64,000 bases of DNA from NCBI GenBank assembly GCA_027487835.1, contig JAIYCU010000028.1, positions 22,930 to 86,929 of the forward strand, read 5' to 3'. A program made the position numbers and the translations under genes. The notes under the pieces are model-generated. The model did no database searches and was not told the DNA's origin. It saw nothing but the letters and a program-made list of their open reading frames with translations. Numbering within the stretch: the stretch's first letter is position 1; each line of letters opens with the position of its first letter. The DNA is from Bacteroidota bacterium. Its GTDB lineage: Bacteria; Bacteroidota; Bacteroidia; UKL13-3. Positions 22,065 through 46,393 of the stretch are shown one piece after another.

Positions 22065-23603
22065 TTAAAGTTTTTGAATTGTTCGTACTTCACTAATTGT
22101 TAGGGCTCTGTTGTAAAACCTAAATTCATCTAATGCACCATTAAAAGGAACTCCTGAATTTGGAAATTCAGACTTTCCTATTACAATATCATAACCTGGT
22201 GCACCATTCCACAGATTCGAATAATTGCTTGGAAAATTCCAAAGCTCAATTCCATCCAAATACATCTTTAATTGATTACCAGATTTTGAAACTGCATAAT
22301 GATGCCAAGTACCAATATTGTTATTTACTCCACTTGTATTACCACCACCGTTACTACCTATGTAGTAACCGAAATTATTATTGGTAGAACTTAAAAGGAT
22401 TGCATACGCAACATTGTATAAAGTTCCAGTATTACCACCTTTATAAATTATTGTTTGCCATGATGTACTTTTATTACCATCTGCAGTCCCTGTTCCATCA
22501 CCATTGTCTGCCAAACGTGAATCAAATCTTGCCCAAAATGTAATTGTATAATCAGTATAGCTTGATGAAATACCAGAAGATCCCGCTAATTTAATTGAAC
22601 CCGGAGAGTTTAATCCTCCAAATTTGTAAGCTGCGTTGGATGTGCCATTTCTATCATTTGTTAGCGTGGCACCATTAACTAAACCATTGTAATTTGCACT
22701 TACAGTATTATTAGCATTACCCGTGAAAGGTAAATTTATTAATAAACCATTTTGAATATTATCGTTTGCATTAGTTACAACCGGAAACGCAACATAACAT
22801 TCTCTACTAATAACTGCAGTTGGTAAAAATGAATAGGGTATCCAAAAAAATCCTTGGTCTTGGACACTGGCTCCCCATGAATTTTGTATTTTAAACGCAC
22901 TTCTATCATTGTCATATCCAACAATTGTTACTGCATGTCCACCTAAATTTTGACCAGAAAAAGAATTGTAAACAGTATTAGTTTGAAGATTTTCATAAGC
23001 ATTAATTGCAATAAAAACTGGATACCCAGCAAGCAAACAAGATTTAATTCTGTTTGTATTGTTCTTATCAACTAATTTCCAACTATGTAACTTGTTTTTT
23101 GCTGCGGCAGTAATTTGTGCAGATGTTGGTTGGGAGGAACAGTCTGGGTCTGAGTATGGCATTTCAGCCAAGGTACATACTCCTTTATTTTTAAGTATCG
23201 AAAAATTATCTAGGTATGAGGAACCACCATATTTGCAATTATTACCTTGTCTTATCTGATTGTATAAGAATGATGGACTGCATAATTGAGAATTATCATT
23301 ATAATTAGTTCCGTTATTTTTGTTCATAAAATAACTCATACCTGCATAGGCTGTAGAAAATGAACAACAAGAACCAATGCCTCCTTGGTTTCCTACCGGG
23401 GGCATATTTAAACTGAAACTATTTGGCATTGTGCCCATGTCAAAATCTGAAATATTATCAATCTGGTCTAATTCTTTATCGCTTGCTTGGACAAACCCAA
23501 AGCCCTCCAATTGCTTTTTTAATTGTTTTTCACAAGAGGTAAAACCTACAATAATTGTAGACATTAAAAGGAAAAAGAATGAAAATTTCTTTATTTTAAT
23601 CAT
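22065..23603 (-). CDS. papain-family (C1) cysteine peptidase lipoprotein with C-terminal LamG/concanavalin-like domain
   Basis: Lipobox GFTSC. Catalytic Cys context QGGIGSCCSFS, His in GGHAVTIVGYDND, Asn in IQNSWG. C-terminal LamG-like motif NGALDEFRFYNRALTISEV. Confidence 0.8.
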   Translation of the reverse strand: MIKIKKFSFFFLLMSTIIVGFTSCEKQLKKQLEGFGFVQASDKELDQIDNISDFDMGTMPNSFSLNMPPVGNQGGIGSCCSFSTAYAGMSYFMNKNNGTNYNDNSQLCSPSFLYNQIRQGNNCKYGGSSYLDNFSILKNKGVCTLAEMPYSDPDCSSQPTSAQITAAAKNKLHSWKLVDKNNTNRIKSCLLAGYPVFIAINAYENLQTNTVYNSFSGQNLGGHAVTIVGYDNDRSAFKIQNSWGASVQDQGFFWIPYSFLPTAVISRECYVAFPVVTNANDNIQNGLLINLPFTGNANNTVSANYNGLVNGATLTNDRNGTSNAAYKFGGLNSPGSIKLAGSSGISSSYTDYTITFWARFDSRLADNGDGTGTADGNKSTSWQTIIYKGGNTGTLYNVAYAILLSSTNNNFGYYIGSNGGGNTSGVNNNIGTWHHYAVSKSGNQLKMYLDGIELWNFPSNYSNLWNGAPGYDIVIGKSEFPNSGVPFNGALDEFRFYNRALTISEVRTIQKL

Positions 23604-34781: not shown

Positions 34782-35541
34782 TTAAGTTAGTTTTTATAGG
34801 TCAACGAATTTAATAAATTTTACACTTTGTTTTTTACTTTACATAAATTTAACCTGTATATTTAATAGACTTAAATTCAGCCAGCCCAATATTTAATTTA
34901 TTTACATAAATGTAAATTTCGGAAAGATACTATTAGGTTCTTACGTTCTTATTGCCGGTATGTTTTTAATTAATGTTAAGCTAACTTTTTTGTATACTTC
35001 GGTTTGTCTTTCATAAACAAGTCAGCCTTTTATTTTTCAAAAAGTTCAAATATAAACCTCATTCTGTTAGCATAAATTGTAAACGGCTTCGGTCTGCAGG
35101 CTAGGTCAAAAACTCTTTCTAATTCGTTTTAACCTTTTACTAATGCTGGAGGTATAGTCAAATGGTCGTAAAGGTCAGTAAGTGAATTAATAAGAAATTT
35201 TAATATTGCATCCAATACTTTTTAAGCTTTTGCAACAATTGCTTGTATTTATTTAACAATATGGTATAAGTATTGGGCTACACAAACAAATGCGCCTCTT
35301 GGCAATAACGCAACTGCTTTGGTAAAAAACCATAACAAATGGGCCTGCCATATTTCTCTGGTGGGTAGAATAATATAAGCTTCCTGTAAACAATTGGCTA
35401 AATGCAATATCTTGGGTTCAGTTTGATCCAACTCAAATTTTGCATACTTAAAAGCGGGTAAGTTTAAGACGTGCTTTTGGAAGAGAAAAGCGCAGAAGTA
35501 TTATAATAAGAAAAAATATAATATTGGAATTTTATAATGCC

Positions 35542-36726
35542 TTAAAATCTTGAAAACAGGGCTCTTAGAAAACATATAAAAGTATTATTAGTTAGTGATA
35601 AAATAAAAAGTCCAATAGCAAACACTGGAGTCAACCAAACTAAGAAACGAATAATGTTTAAATAGCTTTTTTGCTTACTGTGTAGATTATTAATTTTGGT
35701 AAATGTTGTTGTGAAATCATCACCAAGAATTCCAATTTTCTTATCATCAACAGAGTTTTCAAATCTATCAATATCATCTTTCACAAAGTCTATTGCAGAA
35801 AATTGATTACGCAGAAGAACTTCAAGTAAAACACTAAAAACAAATGCACTTAAAACCAAGGCGAAATTGAAATAGATTTTTTCGCCAGTAAGGTCAAATT
35901 GTCCAATTATTAATAAAAAAGCTGCTGGTATTGCCACAAGTTTTGTTTGTGCATCATTAATTACTGCTTGGATTTTTTTGCTGTATTCAATTATCTCCTT
36001 GTCAATTTCTGATTTAAATTTTTGATAAGAATACTTTTCTAAATATAAACTGTGGCTTTTATGGTAATTTAATGTAAGGTCTGAGAAGTTGGTAACCAAA
36101 AAATTGAATCTGTTTTTAGGTTCAATTATTTTTGATAGTGAAGCTATCAATTCATTTGTAAAAATAATTCGTCTCTCCTCCCTATCTGCTGAATCTTGAA
36201 TATGGCTAATTAAACTGTCTAGTTCTTTTATTTCAATTAAATCTTTGGCTGAATAATCCGTAGTTAGTATTAATTGCTTTGCTTGAAAAAAAACAATTTC
36301 ATTGCCCTTTTGATAATCTGAAATACTTCTTAAAAAAGAAATAAGTTTTGTAAATGCTGTATAATTTTGGATTTGAACTGGTTGAACTTGTTGGGTTGAA
36401 ACGTAATTCAGTGAGTTTACAAAGTATTTATTTTGAATATTAGATTGAGATGAGAAATTTATTAAATCTTCGAATGATTCAAAATACTTTTCATCTCCAA
36501 GTTGGTTGGAATATAGTCTTACTTTAATTCTATCGTTAATTGCAATTTGGTCAACTAGTTTATTTCGATTTAGAACAATTACAAAATTCTCAATGCAATT
36601 TGCGGCTGACAAACTTTTTAGTTTTTCTATTTCATCAAGATTAGGCACAAAAAAGCCGACTATTTCATTTCCTGAAATAGTAACTTCTTCAAGTCTTTGT
36701 CTTATCTGAATAAAATCGTTAAGCAT
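35542..36726 (-). CDS. hypothetical protein with C-terminal 3-TM region (candidate membrane effector; partner of the NdpA-like gene)
   Basis: 394 aa. The soluble N-terminal ~270 aa is charged and helical. TM helices are LVAIPAAFLLIIGQF, FALVLSAFVFSVLLEVLL and FLVWLTPVFAIGLFILSL. A 3-nt gap separates it from the upstream gene. Confidence 0.6.
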   Translation of the reverse strand: MLNDFIQIRQRLEEVTISGNEIVGFFVPNLDEIEKLKSLSAANCIENFVIVLNRNKLVDQIAINDRIKVRLYSNQLGDEKYFESFEDLINFSSQSNIQNKYFVNSLNYVSTQQVQPVQIQNYTAFTKLISFLRSISDYQKGNEIVFFQAKQLILTTDYSAKDLIEIKELDSLISHIQDSADREERRIIFTNELIASLSKIIEPKNRFNFLVTNFSDLTLNYHKSHSLYLEKYSYQKFKSEIDKEIIEYSKKIQAVINDAQTKLVAIPAAFLLIIGQFDLTGEKIYFNFALVLSAFVFSVLLEVLLRNQFSAIDFVKDDIDRFENSVDDKKIGILGDDFTTTFTKINNLHSKQKSYLNIIRFLVWLTPVFAIGLFILSLTNNTFICFLRALFSRF

Positions 36727-36729
36727 TGA

Positions 36730-37524
36730 TTATTCGGGGTCTTCTTCATTCGCAAATTGTCTTCTTAAATCATCAGGCAAATTAGTTATTCGTAATTCAT
36801 TTGTCTGTTGGTTGTAAAAAATACTTTCATTTACTAAGCCACTATCAAATTCAATTGTTAGTTTTTTGCTTCGATAAACGTAAAATTTCAAAGTCTTTAG
36901 TGTTTTATTGTGGCCTTTAATAAGAGAGCTTACTCTATAATCTTCACTCGCTGCAAATTCTTGAAACATGTCAGGCTCATCAGCACTTATCATTGATGAT
37001 ATGTGATGCAATGAAATATCCTCTTTTCTTCTAGTTTGAGCATAGCAATAATTCAGAACTTGATTTCTTAAATTTTCTTCTTCTTGAGTATCTAATTCTA
37101 GTTGTGGCAAATAATCGAGAAAAGCTCTTTTTAAGGATTCTGATGATTCTTTTGCAGATGTTTGGTCTGTACATCCAATAAATCTTTTAAAATAATTAGA
37201 AACATCTTTTCTTCCTCTTGCGAATGACAAATACGTTTCTTCATTATTGTCCCAACGAGTAACATTAACTGAATTGGCAACATCTAATTTGTCAATATCA
37301 AGACTGAATATTTCTTCAATACTCAAATTGTCATTTATATTGTATTGCTTTTTGTTGTTCAGCATTACAGTCATTACAAATTCTTCATTTTGTAGTGTAT
37401 AATGAGCAAAAACTACATAACCTCCTGTGGCTTGCGGAACTGCATTAATTACACCCAATAAATGATTCATTGCAGAAGCTGTGAAATCTAAAAACTGCTG
37501 TTCAACAAAGTAGTTTCTTAACAT
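36730..37524 (-). CDS. nucleoid-associated protein NdpA/YejK (NA37) family homolog
   Basis: [34 protein letters not shown] aligns with NdpA [34 protein letters not shown] aligns with YLTFLKGR. C-terminal [13 protein letters not shown] aligns with TIKGTPPNLRDQL. Confidence 0.6.
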   Translation of the reverse strand: [264 protein letters not shown]

Positions 37525-37736
37525 TGTTTGAAAAGGAAAAGTTACTGCATTCGGGTCAAAGATTCCATAGTTTGGATTTGACTTTTTGTAATAAACTTGC
37601 TTTATGTTTGTTACAAATTCTGTTTCTCTTTCACCGACTGGAAGTAGGTTTTCACGTAATGTTATTGTTGCATTACCTTGTGATTCTTTGTCCAGCCTGT
37701 GAACTATTATTGAGTGTAATTCTATATTATAAATTT

Positions 37737-38081
37737 TTACAATTCCCCTTTAAAAGCCTTGTCCAATAAACTTGGAATTAGTTTGGTTAATTCCTGTTCG
37801 GTTTGTTTGTGATGTTCTTTAACTGCATTTGTTTTATTGAGTAGTTCAACAAATTCTCTTTGCAATTCAATTGAAGGAACTGGAACTAATATTTTCATCA
37901 ACTTGTCTAAGCCCAATGTTTTGTTTCTTCCTATCACAATAATTTTTCCGTCAGTGAAAGTCCGCTGTTCAAGTATTAAATCGTCTGACCATTGGCTATC
38001 ATACAGCTTGGGCAACACTTCCTTTCGGCAAGTGTCCGCTTCGCTATCGTGATTGTCAATATGTATAGTTTTATCACTCAT
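37737..38081 (-). pseudogene. chimeric relic ORF: HsdR N-terminal domain fused to HsdS C-terminal conserved tail (type I R-M remnant)
   Basis: N-terminal SEADTCRKEVLPKLYDSQWSDDLILEQRTFTDGKIIVIGR matches HsdR_N (SEAxTRxxLIDPxLxxxGW...). C-terminal PVPSIELQREFVELLNKT...LIPSLLDKAFKGEL is the canonical HsdS C-terminus. Confidence 0.55.
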
Positions 38082-38145: not shown

Positions 38146-41100
38146 TTAAGTTGGTTGTTCATCCTCTATATTAATTTTTAGTACTATTGCAAATTGAGCA
38201 AAACTTGATGATAGGTTAGTTTTAGTTATGTTCCTATTTTTGTGATTTCTGAATTCATCTTCAACTTCTGCTGGTTCAAAATGTTCACCTAAGATAGTGG
38301 CTAAATAAATTGAAGTTAATTTGTCAAAATCATTAGTTGGCTTTTGGAAATTCAAATTAATTGTAGTTTTTAGTTTGTGAATTTTTGAGATTTCACTCTT
38401 TGGTATAGATGGAATCAAAATCTTACTCAAAGCCCATGAAGTAACTCGTTGCAAATTATAATCACCCGATTTAATCCATAATTTTGTCAAGTATATAACA
38501 TATTGTATCCTTAAACTATCTGGGAAAATATTTACTTCTCCTGACCAAGCAACACTCCAGCATATTGAGAAATGACAATGGGCATCATTTGTTTTGAGTA
38601 AGTCATACATAATTTTGAATATTTCCTCTGAAACTGAAATTTCTGAAATTCCTATTTCAAGTGGTCGAAATGATAAACCATACGCAAAGTTCATCATGCC
38701 TAATGCTGCTATACATTTATTTTCATTCGTTTCGCTTTTTAATGATAAAAGAATTTCATTTGGAATTGAAGATATATTTTCTGAATTCGCCAAGTCAGTA
38801 TAGAAAATGTCTGCTAAAGTTGACCCTAATGGGGACGAATATTTATCATCATATTTTCCAAAAAAACATTCTTTAACTCTTTTTCTAAATGCATTTCCAA
38901 ATTTATTTTTAAGAATAATATCTGTGTTTCCTCTTCCAAGGATTGTATAGATGTTTTTCGCATACCATTCAATTGCAGTGCCTAATAAGTCTGGACTAAT
39001 TTGAATTTCATTTGCAAGGCAGCTACCTAAAAGGGAGGGCGCAAGTTTATCTTCCTTTAGTTGTTCCTTTTTTTCTTTAGTGGCAATAATTTTTGATTCA
39101 GAAATTAAATATTCAATTAAGTCTTTTGTATCCCTTTCTAAAAGAACAGCAGCCAATGGTATTACCTCTTTCCAATTTTCATTATTTACATTTGGCTTAA
39201 TAATATCCACAACTTTACTTTCAATATCTGATAATGGAATAAACTTTTTTACTATCGCTTTCGCTGTCAAATACTCTTGGAAACTTAAATGCAAAAATTC
39301 ATATACCGCAGTTATGTTACCTGAATCAAGTTGTTTATGACCTGTCATTATTAGTAAGCTGCTTCTTGATTCAACCCTTTTTATAAATTCAGTGGGATTA
39401 ACATTTGTATAGCCTAAAATTTCTGGCATTTGTTTACGTGCATCAATGAGACAACCATTAAGTTCTTCTGAAGTAATCGTTTGTTGACCATTTTTAGTCA
39501 TCCAATATGCTACAAAAGCAAGTTGGGGTTCTGCTTCTTCAATGTCAAGAATTTCATGTCCTTCAACATTCCATGTCACTAAGAGAAGCTTAATCATTTC
39601 TTGATATAAAACACTTCTTTTAGTTGGAAGATACCCTGCCCATCTTTTAACAAAAAGTAGAGTAGTTAAGAGAAGTGGATTCTCGGCTAATACTACTATT
39701 CTATTGTCCTTTATAATTAAATCACTTAGCTTATTTGCTTCTTTAATTGTGTTTTCTGAGTCGTCTATAATTGCTTTGTGCCATTTTAAACACAGCTCTT
39801 CAATTTCCTCACCAATCAAATTTGAAACTGTATAGTTCTCACAATAAGTTGCTAATGAACCAGCTACAACTCTAAATCCCGCCTCTCGTGATGTTACTAT
39901 AATATTAATTGTAGGGTATGTTGCAATAAAGGTTCTCAGTTGGTTTACAAAGGCAATTCTATTCTTGTCTTCTGCAATTTCATCCAATCCGTCAATTAGT
40001 AACAACGCATTACCATTTTGCAATGACTTTGAAACTAAAATTGAAAAATCATCAGCGCAAGAATGAATTTCTGCTCTAGCAGGTATTCCGTTAATAATAT
40101 CAGTAATACTTAAAGTAACATTGTCCCCAAGTTCTCTACACCTTAAAAAAATTGGAAACCAATCTTTGTCAGGAAGTTTGTCATTTATTTGTATACGCCT
40201 TTCAGGGAAAGCATATGCAATTGCTATACGCTTAATAAGAGTTGATTTTCCGCCACCTGGCTTTGCAAGTATTGCAAGTTTTGATTTCTTTTCTAGGATT
40301 TCACCTATACCTTCTCTCGGTTTATCATCAAAATCAAATTCATCATTTATCCTTATTTGCAGTTTTTTACTCAAATGAAGAGGGACAAAAATATTTTCCA
40401 GCTTTACTTTAACCGAACCAGCTTCTTTATCAGTAGGTAATCCTTCAAATTGGATTTCACCTAATTCATTTTCTAAATACTTGAAATATTTTTCGCCTGT
40501 CTCTTTTAAGTTTCGTTTGGCTACTTTGGTTGTTTCCTCTTTGTTTAATAGGGTTAGTCCATCAAATAAATTTTTAATGTTATTGTCTATTAAAATTATC
40601 TCTTCTGCTAAATCTTTAATAAGAGGCTTTCCTTCCGCATGAACTAAAGCAACATGAGATGGTTTTTGTCCGTGCGAATCTGAATAATAAATTGCCCAAA
40701 CCCAACCTTTATCGTAAGCCAATAAATCGGCATAATCAAGCATATATAGCCCTGATATTAAATTAGATGAAGATGAAATTGCCTTCTCTATTGAGACTAA
40801 AACTCTTCCACGAATCAACTCCTCTACAATTTTTTCTGGCTTAATTAAAATTACTCTTTTATTGTCGGCTTCATTTTCTTGTTCAATTGCAGTTTCCTTA
40901 AAACCTGAAAGAGATATAAAATATCCTACAATGCTAATGCCTTTTGCCCCTTTTTCTTTTTTGCTTTTTCTTTTTTCGACATCAATAGCACCAACAAATT
41001 TGTTTATGTCCGCGCCACCTATTTTTTCTGAGTGAGCTTTACACTCAGCAATAGCTATTTTTTGTTCCGTTCTGTGATTTGAACTCAAATCTAATTCTCT

Positions 41101-41232
41101 GCCTGATTTGTGAATATTAAGCCTTGGTTCATCATATCCCAAAGTATGGAAAAGGTCAGACATCAATCGTCCAAAAAGATCACCTTTTTTGTTTGAATCA
41201 ATTTCTAAAATTTCAATGTTTCTAAGTTTCAT
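38146..41232 (-). CDS. NLR-like antiphage STAND protein: N-terminal Mrr-like PD-(D/E)xK nuclease, central NACHT NTPase, C-terminal helical-repeat sensor (bNACHT/Avs-like)
   Basis: N-terminal ELDL...AIAECK PD-(D/E)xK motif. Walker A AKPGGGKSTL. NACHT Walker B LLLIDGLDEI. NACHT-specific IIVTSRE. About 500-aa helical repeat C-terminus. Confidence 0.8.
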   Translation of the reverse strand: MKLRNIEILEIDSNKKGDLFGRLMSDLFHTLGYDEPRLNIHKSGRELDLSSNHRTEQKIAIAECKAHSEKIGGADINKFVGAIDVEKRKSKKEKGAKGISIVGYFISLSGFKETAIEQENEADNKRVILIKPEKIVEELIRGRVLVSIEKAISSSSNLISGLYMLDYADLLAYDKGWVWAIYYSDSHGQKPSHVALVHAEGKPLIKDLAEEIILIDNNIKNLFDGLTLLNKEETTKVAKRNLKETGEKYFKYLENELGEIQFEGLPTDKEAGSVKVKLENIFVPLHLSKKLQIRINDEFDFDDKPREGIGEILEKKSKLAILAKPGGGKSTLIKRIAIAYAFPERRIQINDKLPDKDWFPIFLRCRELGDNVTLSITDIINGIPARAEIHSCADDFSILVSKSLQNGNALLLIDGLDEIAEDKNRIAFVNQLRTFIATYPTINIIVTSREAGFRVVAGSLATYCENYTVSNLIGEEIEELCLKWHKAIIDDSENTIKEANKLSDLIIKDNRIVVLAENPLLLTTLLFVKRWAGYLPTKRSVLYQEMIKLLLVTWNVEGHEILDIEEAEPQLAFVAYWMTKNGQQTITSEELNGCLIDARKQMPEILGYTNVNPTEFIKRVESRSSLLIMTGHKQLDSGNITAVYEFLHLSFQEYLTAKAIVKKFIPLSDIESKVVDIIKPNVNNENWKEVIPLAAVLLERDTKDLIEYLISESKIIATKEKKEQLKEDKLAPSLLGSCLANEIQISPDLLGTAIEWYAKNIYTILGRGNTDIILKNKFGNAFRKRVKECFFGKYDDKYSSPLGSTLADIFYTDLANSENISSIPNEILLSLKSETNENKCIAALGMMNFAYGLSFRPLEIGISEISVSEEIFKIMYDLLKTNDAHCHFSICWSVAWSGEVNIFPDSLRIQYVIYLTKLWIKSGDYNLQRVTSWALSKILIPSIPKSEISKIHKLKTTINLNFQKPTNDFDKLTSIYLATILGEHFEPAEVEDEFRNHKNRNITKTNLSSSFAQFAIVLKINIEDEQPT

Positions 41233-41261
41233 TAATCTTTTGTTTTTAAAAAGTTATTTTG

Positions 41262-41490
41262 AAGCTGTAATGCCGCAAATTTGTTTTCCATCAACTAATT
41301 TAATACATGCAACTCCAACTTATTTAACAAACTTACCCAATCCTTTACAAACAAAAAATACCCAAAAGTGGGTATATGAAAATATTCTAAATGAATAATG
41401 ACACATTGCACATAAAGTATTAATAACTTAAAACGAAAGATTCAATACACATTTCTACAAACCATTGCAGGTTCCGTTCAACTAGAATTT
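41262..41490 (-). promoter_or_regulatory. conserved promoter-bearing intergenic element, copy E, containing perfect palindrome ATACCCAAAAGTGGGTAT (41358..41375)
   Basis: gcaactccaacttatttaacaaacttacccaatcctttacaaacaaaaaatacccaaaagtgggtat...aaccattgcaggttccgtt, upstream of the NACHT gene start. Confidence 0.65.
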
Positions 41491-41586
41491 ATCTCATTAT
41501 GTTAATTGTTTCTATTGGCATTCGATGGTTTTCAATCCATGGCTTGGCTTGGGGTCAAAATGAAATGCTTGCTGTTGTAGGCAGTG

Positions 41587-42063
41587 TTAAAGAGAAAACA
41601 CCAAAGGAATTACAATTGAAAAAATAAAAAGAATGTAATAAAATATATTTTCCCAAATTTTAAATAGAGAAATTAAAAAGTAGCTTATTTTATATTTACG
41701 TCTCATGTTTGGCTTAACTATTGTAATAAGGGGTCCATGTAAACTTAAAATATCTTTTTCATTAGATTTTATTAAATATTTCTCGAATAATTCGATTGTT
41801 TCTTGTAAATAAATATATCCAGTTAAAATTATTATGTGGAGAGTAAAAAATGTTATCACAATGCTTAATAGTAAAAGCTGAATTTGATTTAATTCAAAGC
41901 CTTTAGTTATTGAAAATCCAAAAGCCGAATTCCATAAAATTACAAACCAATACTTTAAATTTGTTAAATACTCGTATCTTTTTGTTCTAAGTTCAATAGT
42001 ATTGTTGAAATTTAAAAGCAGAAAGTCTCTTTTAAATTTTATATCTTCTGGCTTAAAGGACAT
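41587..42063 (-). CDS. small polytopic membrane protein (hypothetical)
   Basis: 158 aa with 3-4 predicted TM helices. Sits between the NACHT and RloC-like genes. Confidence 0.5.
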   Translation of the reverse strand: MSFKPEDIKFKRDFLLLNFNNTIELRTKRYEYLTNLKYWFVILWNSAFGFSITKGFELNQIQLLLLSIVITFFTLHIIILTGYIYLQETIELFEKYLIKSNEKDILSLHGPLITIVKPNMRRKYKISYFLISLFKIWENIFYYILFIFSIVIPLVFSL

Positions 42064-42440
42064 ACTTTGTTTTTTGCTTTAAAATTTGGGTATATAGAAT
42101 AACATTGTCATAATTTCAGAGTGTGAAAAACCTCATCAAACTTTTTAGTGTAAAAATATCAAAAAATGAATGATTAGGCAAGTATCTTGGTAGTTAAATT
42201 TGCATCAGCAAAACAATTATGGATAACATCAAAGTTAGTAATATCGATCAGATGGAGCTTTGTTGTAATTCTGGAGATACCTTTACACTTCTTCCATTTT
42301 TTTGTTTCTGGATAGACTCATATTTCACTCCAAAGCTTTTTACAAAGCCTATTAAAGTTTTGCCAGTTTGTTGGTTTTCTTAATGATTTTGAAATTTCCA
42401 TTATTAAATGCGAGGTGTCCCTAAAGGTTATAGCTTAACA

Positions 42441-42556
42441 ATTCGGAGGTTTGCGATGGCGGGGATTATTAGCACTAAACTTCATTCGGAGAACTGAATT
42501 TCCACCTTGCACAAAAGTGTCTGCGATGCACGGAACCCCGCCTATTGCAAATGTGC
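42441..42556. other. GC-rich structured element E2: 15-bp long-range stem (tttgcgatGGCGGGG ... CCCCGCCtattgcaa) enclosing about 70 nt, 3' of the RloC-like gene
   Basis: Local GC far above surroundings. Homologous (about 65-70% identity) to element E1 at 45075..45205. Stem base pairs covary with E1 (C:G vs T:A, G:C vs C:G). Shared inner motif GTGTCTGnGAnGCACnGAACC. Confidence 0.6.
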
Positions 42557-42604
42557 TGCTACAAGTTGGGCTTTTGTCTGTCTGAATATATGTTGTTTCA
42601 AATG

Positions 42605-44995
42605 TCATAATTGAACTTCAATTAAGTTAAGAGTGTCTTGTATTAGGTTGTCCAATTCAGGTTCAGTAATAGTATTAGGGTTAATACCTAACATTGTGTA
42701 ATCTGGAGTTGGGTCACCATGATGTGGTTTCCAGGAAACTCCATTAATTAAATGAAGTGTAGATATTATTGTTGTCCTGTTTGCATTGTCCCTAAATACA
42801 ACTGGCAATGTATCTAAAAATGTAATTAATCTTCCAAATGTTTGTATTCCTGTCATAGTTCGAACTTCCTTGTAGAATTTGAACCGTAAATGTGCTTCAA
42901 GAACATTTCTCAACCAACCTAAAACAGTGTCTTTAATTGCATGGTTTGGGTTACTTCTAAAAGCCTCCAATGCTTCAATATGTTTAAAGTATTCAATTTT
43001 TACCAATTCTTCTAAATCACATAGTTCAAGTTTAGATGCTTTGGCTACGAAATCTTCCTTTATACGAAGTGTGCATTTTAAGGTTGCTCCAATGTCTTTG
43101 CCTATTTCATGAAGAAAATATTCATTGTGGCTTAAAACAACCACCTGCTTTAGTTGTTGAAATAATGTTCTAATAATTCCAATTGTATAGGTTCTTCTAT
43201 TAGTATCTAAACTTGATAAAGGGTCATCAAAAATTAAAATTTTATCTTGGCGGTTTGGATCAATGTCAAGTTTGGATAAAAAGAACGCTAAAGCAATTGT
43301 GCTTTTATCTCCCTCGCTCAAACATTCCTTGGCATTAAATGGTTGATTTGGGACAAATGATATGTCCTTGCCGTCTATTGTCAATTTGTAAGCGATTTTG
43401 CTTTGTGTTGCTCTTCCTGCTGGAGCAACATGAACAACATCCTCTATTCTAAAAAGTGTCTTGAAAACATTGCCCAAATAATGGTTGATACGTGTCTGGT
43501 AGCTATTGAAAAAAGTTGCTGCTGTGGTTTGCTGTTGTTGCGATAAAGCTGTGTATGCTGTTTCTAAACCTCTAAGTGTTTGTTTCTCGGCAGACAATTG
43601 AGTGCAAAGCGTAACAATGGGAGTTTCATATCTCTTTTTAATTCTTTTTAGTCTATCAACCGCAAGCTGTGCATTTGCAGCAGTCTGAATACCTGCACGA
43701 AAAGTTGTAATTGCAGCATTGTAAGTTGTAATGCTTTGATTGTAGCTTTCAATGTTTGTGTTAATGGTCTGTCCAGAAGACAGAAAAACAGTAGCGGTGG
43801 CGGTAGCCACCGCTACTGTAGGATTTTGTATTTTTTGTTGGAGTGAATCAATTAACCTTTGAAACTCTGCTCTTAAAACAGTTTCGTCCGCAATGATGTT
43901 AAAAATTGGTGGATGAACTGTATTTGGCAAGTGCGTAGCCCATAACGTTACTCTCCCTGTATTTGTCTGATTGATATTGTTTATCGCTTGTATGGCAGCG
44001 TCCAAATTGAAGTTTTGAAGCGAAGTCAAATGTGATTGTAGTCGTAGAACTAAAGCGTTAAAGTCAGCATTAAATTTAGTGATATAGGCGTTTAGAATTT
44101 CAACATTGCCATCAATAGTCTGCATACAAAATGGACAAGAAATTGTGGGTTCATTTGCTGCTTGTTTTCTCTCCACATATGCAAATCCTCTTTGCAGCCA
44201 ATTTTCAGGTCCGTCAAGTCCGTTGTCTGTCAAGTCTTGACAATGATTTGAAAACAAAGTTTCCAAAGCTGCATTTTGAATTGCTTGTGATGTTGTCTGT
44301 AAGTCTGTGATAAGAGAAGTGAAATCAATACCCGATATTATTCGGGTGAGAGCAGTAAGTTGTTGTAATGTTTGAATTATTGTGTTTGCATTCGCACTCG
44401 CTAATGCAGCCTCCGCCGCTGTAATTTGTTGGTCAATTCCGCTAGATTGTGTTACAGGAATAGCAAGAAATGAAGTAATTAAGTCAGCGGTCAAACTGTT
44501 TCCCACTTGCTGAATTAATTGTTGTTCAATATTTGTTATTGATTGTTTTGATATGACTTTAGCAGCTTTGTTTTGTTCAATTTGATTTTGAATTGCAATT
44601 CCTTGTGCACCGATAACAAATTGATGAAGTTGCTTTTTATGTTCATCATTAAAGTCAAACCCTGAATAGATATTGTCGTTGACAAAATGAATGTCAAAAA
44701 TCTCAATATTATCAAAAGGAGTTGTCCAACCAGCAGCCCTTAAGGTGTGAAATGTATTCGGTGTCCCTGTTTGAGTTATTTGTGCTGCTTGTGCTGCTAT
44801 ATGGTTTGTAGAAATTCTACTTCTAACGATTTCAGGTTTGTTGGTTGTCAAGGAACGAAACACTGAAGTTAGTGTGGTTTTACCACCTCCATTGTTGCCA
44901 TAAATTAAGGTCAGCTTTTGAAAATTAATCTGTCCAGCAGCAGTGTAGTTGCGGAATTTTCCAATGGAAGTAAGTCGTTCAACTTTGTTTATCAT
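42605..44995 (-). CDS. RloC/PrrC-like anticodon-nuclease-type ABC ATPase (AAA_13-like): split ABC head with long coiled-coil insert, CxxC zinc-hook, C-terminal HEPN-like domain
   Basis: Walker A GNNGGGKTT at the N-terminus. About 450-aa Gln/Ala-rich coiled-coil with SCPFC. ABC signature LSEGDKSTIALAFFL, Walker B ILIFDDP, H-loop VLSHN. C-terminal roughly 190 aa carry an Rx5H match to the HEPN Rx4-6H motif (LRNVLEAH). Confidence 0.7.
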   Translation of the reverse strand: MINKVERLTSIGKFRNYTAAGQINFQKLTLIYGNNGGGKTTLTSVFRSLTTNKPEIVRSRISTNHIAAQAAQITQTGTPNTFHTLRAAGWTTPFDNIEIFDIHFVNDNIYSGFDFNDEHKKQLHQFVIGAQGIAIQNQIEQNKAAKVISKQSITNIEQQLIQQVGNSLTADLITSFLAIPVTQSSGIDQQITAAEAALASANANTIIQTLQQLTALTRIISGIDFTSLITDLQTTSQAIQNAALETLFSNHCQDLTDNGLDGPENWLQRGFAYVERKQAANEPTISCPFCMQTIDGNVEILNAYITKFNADFNALVLRLQSHLTSLQNFNLDAAIQAINNINQTNTGRVTLWATHLPNTVHPPIFNIIADETVLRAEFQRLIDSLQQKIQNPTVAVATATATVFLSSGQTINTNIESYNQSITTYNAAITTFRAGIQTAANAQLAVDRLKRIKKRYETPIVTLCTQLSAEKQTLRGLETAYTALSQQQQTTAATFFNSYQTRINHYLGNVFKTLFRIEDVVHVAPAGRATQSKIAYKLTIDGKDISFVPNQPFNAKECLSEGDKSTIALAFFLSKLDIDPNRQDKILIFDDPLSSLDTNRRTYTIGIIRTLFQQLKQVVVLSHNEYFLHEIGKDIGATLKCTLRIKEDFVAKASKLELCDLEELVKIEYFKHIEALEAFRSNPNHAIKDTVLGWLRNVLEAHLRFKFYKEVRTMTGIQTFGRLITFLDTLPVVFRDNANRTTIISTLHLINGVSWKPHHGDPTPDYTMLGINPNTITEPELDNLIQDTLNLIEVQL

Positions 44996-45074
44996 GCTTG
45001 AAAGGTGTTCTTGTCAATTGTTTGTATTATGCAGTCAGCTTCATGTTAGCACGGTCGTCATAGCCTTGCTGGTA

Positions 45075-45205
45075 AAGTTTTCGGGCTTGGCGAAGGTGGC
45101 GATTTTCACCACAAATGTTGATGCGGAGAACCAAACTTTGATTAACCTCAAATGTGTCTGTGAAGCACTGAACCGCCACTTTTGCCAAACCCGTGTTATG
45201 TGCAG
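45075..45205. other. GC-rich structured element E1 (homolog of E2): long-range stem ttggcgaaGGTGGCG ... CGCCACttttgccaa, between the SIR2 and RloC-like genes
   Basis: Direct-orientation homolog of E2. 15-bp stem with two G·T wobbles. Compensatory changes relative to E2. Covers the spurious 62-aa ORF 45027..45215. Confidence 0.6.
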
Positions 45206-45211
45206 TATTTT

Positions 45212-46393
45212 TCACTTTATAAATTCAGATTTTTCAAGATTTGGATAAGTCTCAATGAATTCCTCAAACGTGCCTTTAAAGGTTTCAAGTTGACCAATTT
45301 GCTTTTGGGAGAAAATTTGATTTACTTTTTCCCAATGAGCATCTGATGATGTTGGGTCTACTACTTTGATTATAGGTTTATTTCTATTCCAATTTAAAGC
45401 ATGTTGTAATAAATTTAAAAATGCTAGGTCTGATTGAGGAAATGAATATCCGATTATAATAATTTCTTGTGCTTCAATTAGTGATTTGAATGTTCCATCC
45501 CAAAGTTCTTTAGCTGTAGAATTTTCGTTCTTACCTAAAATTGGGGCAACTAAATCATGTTCAAGTTTTGCTCCACAAATGCCACATTTAAATCGGTCAA
45601 ATAAATTTCTTATTTCTTCTGTACTATGTTTGTCATCGTAATACATTGAGTAACTATTCACAATTTTGTAGTTATGGATAGTCTTACAGTTTGGACATTT
45701 AAACCAATCAAACGACCCATGTAATTTAATCAATTCATGGTGTTTACTGTAAGTCCATTTATATTGTTCATTACGGATTAAATGAGCTCCGTCACTAAAT
45801 GTATAGATTGGTACTATATAATGTGGCACAACATTAAAATTGCTTTCTACGCCAACTACACCCCAGATGTGGTCAAAATATTCGTCATCAAGTTTACAGT
45901 CATAGTTAAATGATATAGTACTTAATACCGGTATGTTATTGTCGTTAATTGTTTTGAACCATAGTCTATCAAAGAAATTTTTGTATAATTCTTTTGAGTT
46001 GTCTAAAAAAATTGTGTTATCAATGAATTTAGAAGTTTTGTTGTCAATGGCAGAAAAGATAATTTTTGTAAGCGTTTTAAATACTTTAGTTAAAGTGTCT
46101 TGGTTCAGAAGATAATTGTCAACATGAATTATAGAATTGTTTCGTATAAAATAATCAAGTTGTCCCAAGAGATTTTCATAATCAATCCACTCTTTTTCCA
46201 AGTCTTTTCCTTGCAATTCCAAAACAATTGATTTTACTATTGTAAATACTTCCTTAAAATGACTTGATTTACATTCCTTGATAAATTCAATTATAGATGT
46301 TGGAAGCTGATTAAGAGTTGGAATTCCATAAGCAAAAGAAGCTCCTGCCCCGAAGACACAAGCTGTTCTCTTTATATTTTTATGGTCTGTCAT
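45212..46393 (-). CDS. SIR2-like (SIR2_2/DSR-type) defense-associated protein with C-terminal Cys-rich zinc-ribbon
   Basis: N-terminal ACVFGAGASFAYGIP matches the SIR2_2 hallmark (hFhGAGhS..GhP). C-terminal CPNCK...CGICG. Defense-island context. Confidence 0.65.
   Translation of the reverse strand: MTDHKNIKRTACVFGAGASFAYGIPTLNQLPTSIIEFIKECKSSHFKEVFTIVKSIVLELQGKDLEKEWIDYENLLGQLDYFIRNNSIIHVDNYLLNQDTLTKVFKTLTKIIFSAIDNKTSKFIDNTIFLDNSKELYKNFFDRLWFKTINDNNIPVLSTISFNYDCKLDDEYFDHIWGVVGVESNFNVVPHYIVPIYTFSDGAHLIRNEQYKWTYSKHHELIKLHGSFDWFKCPNCKTIHNYKIVNSYSMYYDDKHSTEEIRNLFDRFKCGICGAKLEHDLVAPILGKNENSTAKELWDGTFKSLIEAQEIIIIGYSFPQSDLAFLNLLQHALNWNRNKPIIKVVDPTSSDAHWEKVNQIFSQKQIGQLETFKGTFEEFIETYPNLEKSEFIK

Follow-up and report, generated by a model that had tools for sequence, protein, structure and literature searches.

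We examined a 64,000-nucleotide (nt) stretch of DNA from a Bacteroidota bacterium (UKL13-3 lineage; positions 22,930 to 86,929 of contig JAIYCU010000028.1, assembly GCA_027487835.1), which we refer to as the window. On its minus strand are two adjacent genes, here called A and B. Gene A (36730..37725, 331 codons) encodes a full-length NA37/YejK-like nucleoid-associated protein (NAP), which is a putative PagA/DS-1A-type sensor. Gene B (35542..36726, 394 amino acids [aa]) starts 3 nt after the A stop codon and encodes a candidate membrane effector of the DS1_2/Pag2B kind. We consider it likely that the locus belongs, as a divergent representative from the Bacteroidota, to the anti-phage family that joins a NAP sensor to a membrane effector, the family of DS-1, and that by architecture it corresponds to type II PANGU. 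For the pair itself, the case consists of homology, architecture, strict linkage, co-divergence, and a defense island context.

An initial annotation of this DNA had guessed that the two genes were an abortive infection (Abi)-type pair, with an NA37 module and a membrane effector. That guess is now well supported by the homology of B to DS-1B, the strict pairing of the genes, and their defense neighborhoods. The annotation had also presented the pair as a candidate novel system, and this claim did not survive. DS-1 has been validated (PMC13092281), type II PANGU has been described (10.64898/2026.04.06.716658), and NCBIfam models exist for both DS-1 proteins. This is not a new kind of system, and the locus is a divergent member of a type described and validated since 2025.

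Homology of B to the DS-1 partner protein

DS-1 (DefensePredictor system D390) is a two-gene E. coli system that was validated against phage by DeWeirdt et al. (bioRxiv Jan 2025; Science 2026, PMC13092281). Its protection has been replicated. The two proteins are WP_000355468.1, a 391-aa NA37 protein, and WP_000150292.1 (DS-1B, 399 to 404 aa), which starts 2 nt later (PMC13092281). NCBIfam models NF053868 (DS1_1 nucleoid-associated anti-phage protein) and NF053869 (DS1_2 anti-phage protein) derive from DS-1. B matched DS1_2 with 68.4 bits (E 6.2e-19; profile positions 34 to 335 of 337, B residues 82 to 371), which is under the 315-bit cut-off. DS1_2 was the only NCBIfam match of B and of five other members of its family, and in these six proteins it covered nearly the whole model with E values from 1e-13 to 7e-21. 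DS-1B itself scored 375 bits on NF053869, above the cut-off.

We also compared B directly with the DS-1B sequence, taken from the supplement of PMC13092281. A hidden Markov model (HMM) of 144 B family representatives matched DS-1B with 94 bits (E 5.5e-31), aligning HMM positions 59 to 383 of 396 with DS-1B residues 53 to 383. DS-1B against the B family profile gave an hhalign probability of 91.7%, and BLASTP of B against DS-1B gave an E value of 1e-7 with 25% identity over 96 aa. Together with the DS1_2 matches, these comparisons indicate that, as judged by sequence, B is a remote but significant and nearly end-to-end homologue of the validated DS-1 partner.

The resemblance extends to gene order and to a motif. 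In both systems a gene for an NA37/YejK domain protein is followed by one for a partner of about 400 aa, with a gap of 2 nt in DS-1 and 3 nt in the window. Where the hydrophobic C-terminal region begins, B and DS-1B have a QTK-x-x-x-IP-[AG]-A motif in common (QTKALTIPGA in DS-1B). However, the sequence relationship is very distant, the C-terminal segments of B are more hydrophobic than those of DS-1B, and the host of the window pair belongs to the Bacteroidota, whereas that of DS-1 is E. coli.

Structure and conservation of B

The initial annotation had noted a C-terminal bundle of three transmembrane (TM) helices as the only recognizable feature of the 394-aa protein. The C-terminal helices are borne out. 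Kyte-Doolittle analysis gave hydrophobic segments at residues 263 to 281, 283 to 307, and 355 to 387, and an AlphaFold2 (AF2) model built with 46 family sequences (predicted local distance difference test score, 86.7) has long helices at residues 265 to 276, 284 to 325, and 336 to 393 that coincide with them. The three hydrophobic helices (residues 263 to 387) are encoded by 35566..35940, minus strand. Residues 1 to 262 (35941..36726, minus strand) form a predicted cytoplasmic part, a candidate NAP-binding domain. AF2 modeled this part as an alpha/beta domain (residues 1 to 160) followed by helices (residues 169 to 263). B had no Pfam family at an E value below 0.1 and no PADLOC (2023) family. 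The SLATT or other two- to three-TM effector families that had been suggested for it were not found in Pfam or PADLOC, nor was any other named Abi effector of that kind. A Foldseek search of PDB and BFVD with the B model returned nothing at an E value of 1e-3 or less, and a PDB sequence search with the B profile gave no match.

The B family has 1,286 cluster representatives at an E value of 1e-3 or less. Its most conserved motif, INDAQTKLVAIPAAF, is just ahead of the hydrophobic region, and conservation peaks there and inside that region (N287, Q308, Q352, and W364). The invariant residues of the family are Q260, K262, P267, A269, N287, F297, L300, Q308, Q352, L356, and W364. The soluble part (residues 1 to 260) is negatively charged in 99% of the family, with a median net charge of -11, whereas the window protein has a net charge of only -5 there. 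Gene B is undamaged, and its full-length product is 93% identical to its nearest relative (P0066). The ratio of nonsynonymous to synonymous changes (pN/pS) for B against close relatives is 0.16.

Gene A and its lost start codon

The initial annotation had described a 264-aa protein resembling NdpA/YejK. The NA37 homology held up, but the gene model did not. The 264-aa product matched Pfam NA37 (PF04245) with an E value of 1.5e-52 over profile positions 66 to 325 of 325 only. Its frame is open for 72 further codons upstream, and a typical NA37 N terminus is encoded there (…IELHSIIVHRLDKESQ…). With the upstream codons included (a 336-codon reading, 36730..37740, that contains the 331-codon gene), the match passed the Pfam check at full length, with 224.5 bits against a cut-off of 24.6 and coverage of profile positions 1 to 325. 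Homologues of A are 330 to 337 aa long, and the closest are 98% identical, have 331 aa, and begin with MELHSIIVHRLDK. The 264-aa open reading frame (ORF; 36730..37524, minus strand) is thus the tail of gene A from its first in-frame ATG (Met68), and it lacks NA37 profile positions 1 to 65.

The reason for the short gene call is a single codon. DNA alignment with the related loci L001 and L034 (loci are designated by L and a number) placed an ATA at 37725..37723, minus strand, where the ancestral ATG start of gene A stood. Both relatives have ATG in an otherwise near-identical context. The ATA is also present in L031 and L032, which are two further independent assemblies of the window's locus, and therefore it is not an assembly error. 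There is no ATG, GTG, or TTG in frame from the upstream stop codon to Met68 (37524). Of 22 family loci examined, only the window has no canonical start codon either at the N terminus or before it. Public gene callers likewise give gene A as 264 aa, and this call in public assemblies is an artifact of the ATG-to-ATA change.

In E. coli, initiation at ATA occurs at roughly 0.1 to 1% of the level at ATG. From the ATA start, little or no full-length A is predicted in the window's strain, where it is probably produced in very small amounts, if at all. The characterized relatives depend on both genes, and the window copy is therefore probably hypomorphic or recently inactivated.

Full-length gene A also aligned with the solved YejK structure 9be2_A over residues 2 to 325 (E 2e-48), and the basic "GR..K" loop region of YejK/NdpA is kept (LTFLKGRVGRKVADFFMDF in YejK). 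However, A scored 232.7 bits on the YejK equivalog model NF001557, under its 341-bit cut-off, and unlike YejK/NdpA it always comes with B, has a patchy distribution, and is sited in defense islands. On DS1_1 (NF053868) it scored 115.4 bits (E 2.9e-33; profile positions 65 to 330 of 369), which is under that model's 330-bit cut-off. As a separate observation, A residues 228 to 291 weakly resembled (E 0.004) a 108-aa PDB chain named "Anti-CRISPR protein" (23aa_A), possibly by chance.

Pairing of A and B across relatives

In the window, the A and B ORFs share strand and frame, with 3 nt between them. We looked at whether the pair co-occurs elsewhere, and it does. Of 30 fetched loci, 28 had an NA37 gene directly upstream of B in the same orientation. 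The other two loci were cut by contig ends, which makes the count 28 of 28 testable loci. The pairing persisted down to about 28% B identity, in Elizabethkingia, Riemerella, Parabacteroides, Pedobacter, and Sphingobacterium. The closest named relatives were Niabella and Segetibacter. The identities of A and B to the window proteins co-varied (Spearman 0.66, p 0.001).

Neighbors of the pair were often defense genes, and type I restriction-modification (R-M) genes were the most recurrent (window, L001, L003, L013, L017, L020, and L034). In L003, a complete type I R-M operon is directly upstream, giving the intact layout hsdR-hsdM-hsdS-NA37-B. Type I R-M genes also precede the pair in L013 and L017, and hsdS fragments are attached to it in the window, L001, and L034. 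Other defense neighbors are a Mrr-type nuclease and HEPN in L005, and CBASS, TIR/SEFIR, and GmrSD in L010. In about 18 of 25 loci there is no type I R-M gene adjacent to the pair, and some of these pairs follow a Mrr nuclease or nothing recognizable.

The pair is not always intact, and L009, L013, L015, and L030 have copies with frameshifts or insertions. Such frequent decay is expected of a costly Abi system. Two of these copies are natural inactivations by insertion. In Niabella (L013:8989-12521), B is interrupted by about 1.3 kb and the NA37 gene is also frameshifted, and in Riemerella anatipestifer RCAD0997 (L030:7776-10942), B is interrupted by about 0.8 kb.

Three further layouts were seen. 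In a Bacteroidia metagenome-assembled genome (L020:6056-15937), the pair and two small ORFs are between hsdM-hsdS and hsdR, resembling the position of prrC in the prr locus. Just 3' of B, some relatives have a conserved 77-aa ORF (MKNLLTLHEAVAVVLLS…KLK; L003:11186-11419, L010:12441-12674, and also L004 and L011). In L010 and L011, a 423-aa ORF follows B by 3 nt. Neither the 77-aa nor the 423-aa ORF is present in the window.

A restriction-modification relic and a shared cassette

The initial annotation had placed a type I R-M relic beside the pair, and we could identify it. A 114-aa ORF just upstream of gene A (37737..38081, minus strand) joins an HsdR N terminus to an HsdS C terminus, as judged by profile matches and matches to relatives. 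Its residues 13 to 58 matched the N terminus of EcoAI-type HsdR, and residues 53 to 114 matched the HsdS C terminus (PADLOC Specificity_I). The HsdS part is 51% identical to the C terminus of L003 HsdS and 90% identical to the hsdS fragment of L001. Exactly this kind of hsdR::hsdS fusion is expected if part of an hsdR…hsdS-A-B operon is deleted. The ORF is a remnant of a type I R-M operon that once carried the A-B pair at its 3' end. Kinship of the relic N terminus with L003 HsdR was considered and rejected. There was no similarity, and the relic belongs to a different HsdR family, which was recognized by the EcoAI-type model only.

DNA similarity between the window and L001 defined a shared cassette of about 2.4 kb (35538..37932, minus strand), which consists of the last ~190 nt of hsdS, A, and B. 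The similarity begins inside the conserved 3' region of hsdS and stops 4 nt after the B stop codon. The flanks of the two cassettes are unrelated on both sides.

Likeness to type II PANGU and a possible mechanism

PANGU systems have been described by Li et al. (bioRxiv 10.64898/2026.04.06.716658). In these, the chromosome is bound by YejK-like NAPs, which come free once phage nucleases degrade it and then attach to an acidic "DNA-mimic" domain in their cognate effector. In type II, the NAP is Pag2A and the effector is Pag2B, with the DNA-mimic domain at its N terminus and a TM domain at its C terminus. Both are required, and each alone is nontoxic. Pag2A leaves the nucleoid on T4 infection, and it binds the Pag2B N-terminal domain with a dissociation constant (KD) of 19 nM. 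Type II (Cluster 2) spans phyla, and PANGU is sporadic in the Bacteroidota. (All from 10.64898/2026.04.06.716658.)

The window pair resembles type II PANGU in being a tight bicistron of a YejK-like NAP and a downstream partner, in the partner's negatively charged N-terminal cytoplasmic part and C-terminal TM domain (predicted for B by both hydropathy and AF2), and in its linkage to R-M and other defense genes. PANGU operons were delimited by a gap of less than 40 bp between NAP and partner, and the 3-nt gap is within this limit. The PANGU context criterion is defense genes within 10 kb, and around the window pair these are the Mrr+NACHT gene, the R-M relic, the PDC-S06 gene, and the SIR2 gene. 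There are also differences. The N-terminal part of B is weakly acidic and was modeled as an alpha/beta domain plus helices with no obvious DNA-like rod, and the sensor gene in the window lacks an ATG.

DNA binding, relocalization of the NAP, NAP-effector binding, and the need for both genes are taken from the literature on relatives. By analogy with PANGU, A would be a YejK-like NA37 dimer that coats chromosomal DNA without sequence specificity, and degradation of the host chromosome by a phage would release it. Free A might then bind the acidic cytoplasmic N-terminal part of B. The C-terminal membrane helices of B would turn toxic, probably via oligomerization and permeabilization or depolarization of the membrane (this role of the membrane domain is our inference only), and the infected cell would halt before the phage cycle is completed, which is abortive infection. 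The cassette itself descends from an arrangement in which the pair closed a type I R-M operon at its 3' end, and deletion has left only the hsdR::hsdS relic of that operon.

Alternative explanations

Several points weigh against reading the locus as a DS-1/PANGU-type system with a probably impaired sensor. Both proteins score far under the NCBIfam equivalog cut-offs (A, 115 versus 330 bits; B, 68 versus 315 bits). A lacks the 41-aa Cys-rich N-terminal extension of DS-1A, and it is nearer to the model of housekeeping YejK (233 bits) than to DS1_1 (115 bits). The soluble part of B is only mildly acidic in the window, so that a DNA-mimic feature is no more than putative in B. The comparison with Pag2A and Pag2B was by their described architecture, not by sequence, and the mode of action of Pag2B was left open by the PANGU authors (10.64898/2026.04.06.716658). 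Phage protection by DS-1 was tested with the E. coli system only. As for impairment of the sensor, a pN/pS of 0.05 for gene A against its ATG-bearing relatives, with no second lesion, means that A might still be expressed. The rest of the gene is undamaged and looks selected. Furthermore, the relic ORF stops 11 nt upstream of the ATA, and weak initiation at the ATA after termination of the relic is conceivable.

These last points bear on a reading that we regard as a serious possibility, although we would put it at somewhat short of even: the window copy is a nonfunctional remnant, in which loss of the A start codon has silenced the sensor and the locus is decaying together with the deleted type I R-M operon. 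The ATA is shared by three assemblies of this lineage and is unique among the 22 family loci, the next in-frame start (Met68) would remove NA37 profile positions 1 to 65, the neighboring R-M operon is already reduced to the 114-aa fusion ORF, and other copies of the family have been broken (L009, L013, L015, and L030). Both genes are needed and single genes are nontoxic in the characterized relatives, and therefore loss of A would be neutral to viability. However, A and B have no other lesion, the low pN/pS values apply to both genes, B is intact, and the 67 codons before Met68 have four synonymous versus one or two nonsynonymous changes, with the start codon itself being one of the latter. 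Near-cognate reinitiation after the relic stop is also conceivable.

We think it unlikely that the pair is a guard module tied to type I R-M, as PrrC is in the prr locus, rather than a free-standing sensor-effector system. This idea would account for type I R-M genes being the most recurrent neighbors, for the pair being appended to the 3' end of type I R-M operons or enclosed by them in L003, L013, L017, and L020 (the likeness to PrrC/EcoprrI), for the hsdS fragments still attached in the window, L001, and L034, and for a cassette boundary within the conserved 3' region of hsdS. However, there is no sequence relationship to PrrC. Linkage is not obligatory, given the roughly 18 of 25 loci without an adjoining type I R-M gene, and the window has retained the pair despite deletion of its R-M operon. 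In addition, E. coli DS-1 and type II PANGU protect as two cloned genes alone (PMC13092281; 10.64898/2026.04.06.716658). A housekeeping role, in which the NAP and its membrane partner tether or organize the chromosome at the membrane and have no part in immunity, seems very improbable to us. It would fit the higher score of A on the YejK model and the report that many NA37 genes are in operons without known defense links (10.64898/2026.04.06.716658). It does not fit the patchy distribution of the pair, the near-identical cassettes in unrelated contexts, the embedding in defense islands, the frequent pseudogenization, or the homology of B to part of a proven anti-phage system.

If the locus is a NAP-sensor system of the DS-1/PANGU type, it brings a well-populated clade of Bacteroidota under a recent anti-phage principle, in which a nucleoid protein stands guard over the integrity of the genome. 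In this clade, the pair is often found together with type I R-M operons. The natural start codon variant of the sensor could be used to test dosage dependence. Of local interest are the clade itself, the way in which the pair is repeatedly attached to type I R-M operons, and this natural sensor start codon mutant. A more elaborate Bacteroidota variant can be imagined, in which a mobile NAP/TM cassette enters the conserved 3' end of hsdS by recombination, as a PrrC-like back-up Abi system for type I R-M, and B is a CorA-like oligomeric channel with cytoplasmic alpha/beta domains that are gated by the freed NAP. We consider this speculative and give it little credence. If it were true, the CorA-like channel would account for killing by type II effectors, a question that the PANGU authors left open.

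The defense island and its putative edge

Downstream of the pair, the genes are nondefense ones (SH3-like, trypsin-like, hydrolase, and desaturase). The 760 nt 3' of B (34782..35541) have no ORF of at least 60 aa except one 60-aa ORF with a TTG start, and no remnants of the genes that follow B in other loci. The window contains no tRNA, and there were no Rfam matches in its 30- to 48-kb region. A scan for sigma-70 promoters and terminators gave nothing above shuffled sequence (the sigma-70 model is unsuited to Bacteroidota), with no terminator-like site at the putative island edge. There is no step in G+C content at this edge either. From about 20000 to 49000, G+C is 0.28 to 0.34, versus 0.37 to 0.42 in the flanks. 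This low-GC region is much wider than the defense genes, and therefore composition does not delimit the island.

The rest of the defense island (38146..46393, minus strand) contains a Mrr_cat+NACHT gene, a PDC-S06-type AAA_13 gene, and a SIR2-like gene. The first of these (38146..41232, minus strand) encodes a 1,028-aa protein that combines a Mrr_cat nuclease domain at the N terminus with a NACHT STAND NTPase and that weakly matched the antiphage EruA model. It is directly upstream of the relic and looks like a single-gene Avs/STAND-type defense candidate. The AAA_13 ATPase gene (42605..44995, minus strand) matched the PADLOC candidate system PDC-S06 with 235 bits, and the SIR2-like gene (45212..46393, minus strand) matched Aga_SIR2 (E 4.8e-12). 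These two adjoining genes may be a two-gene defense unit.

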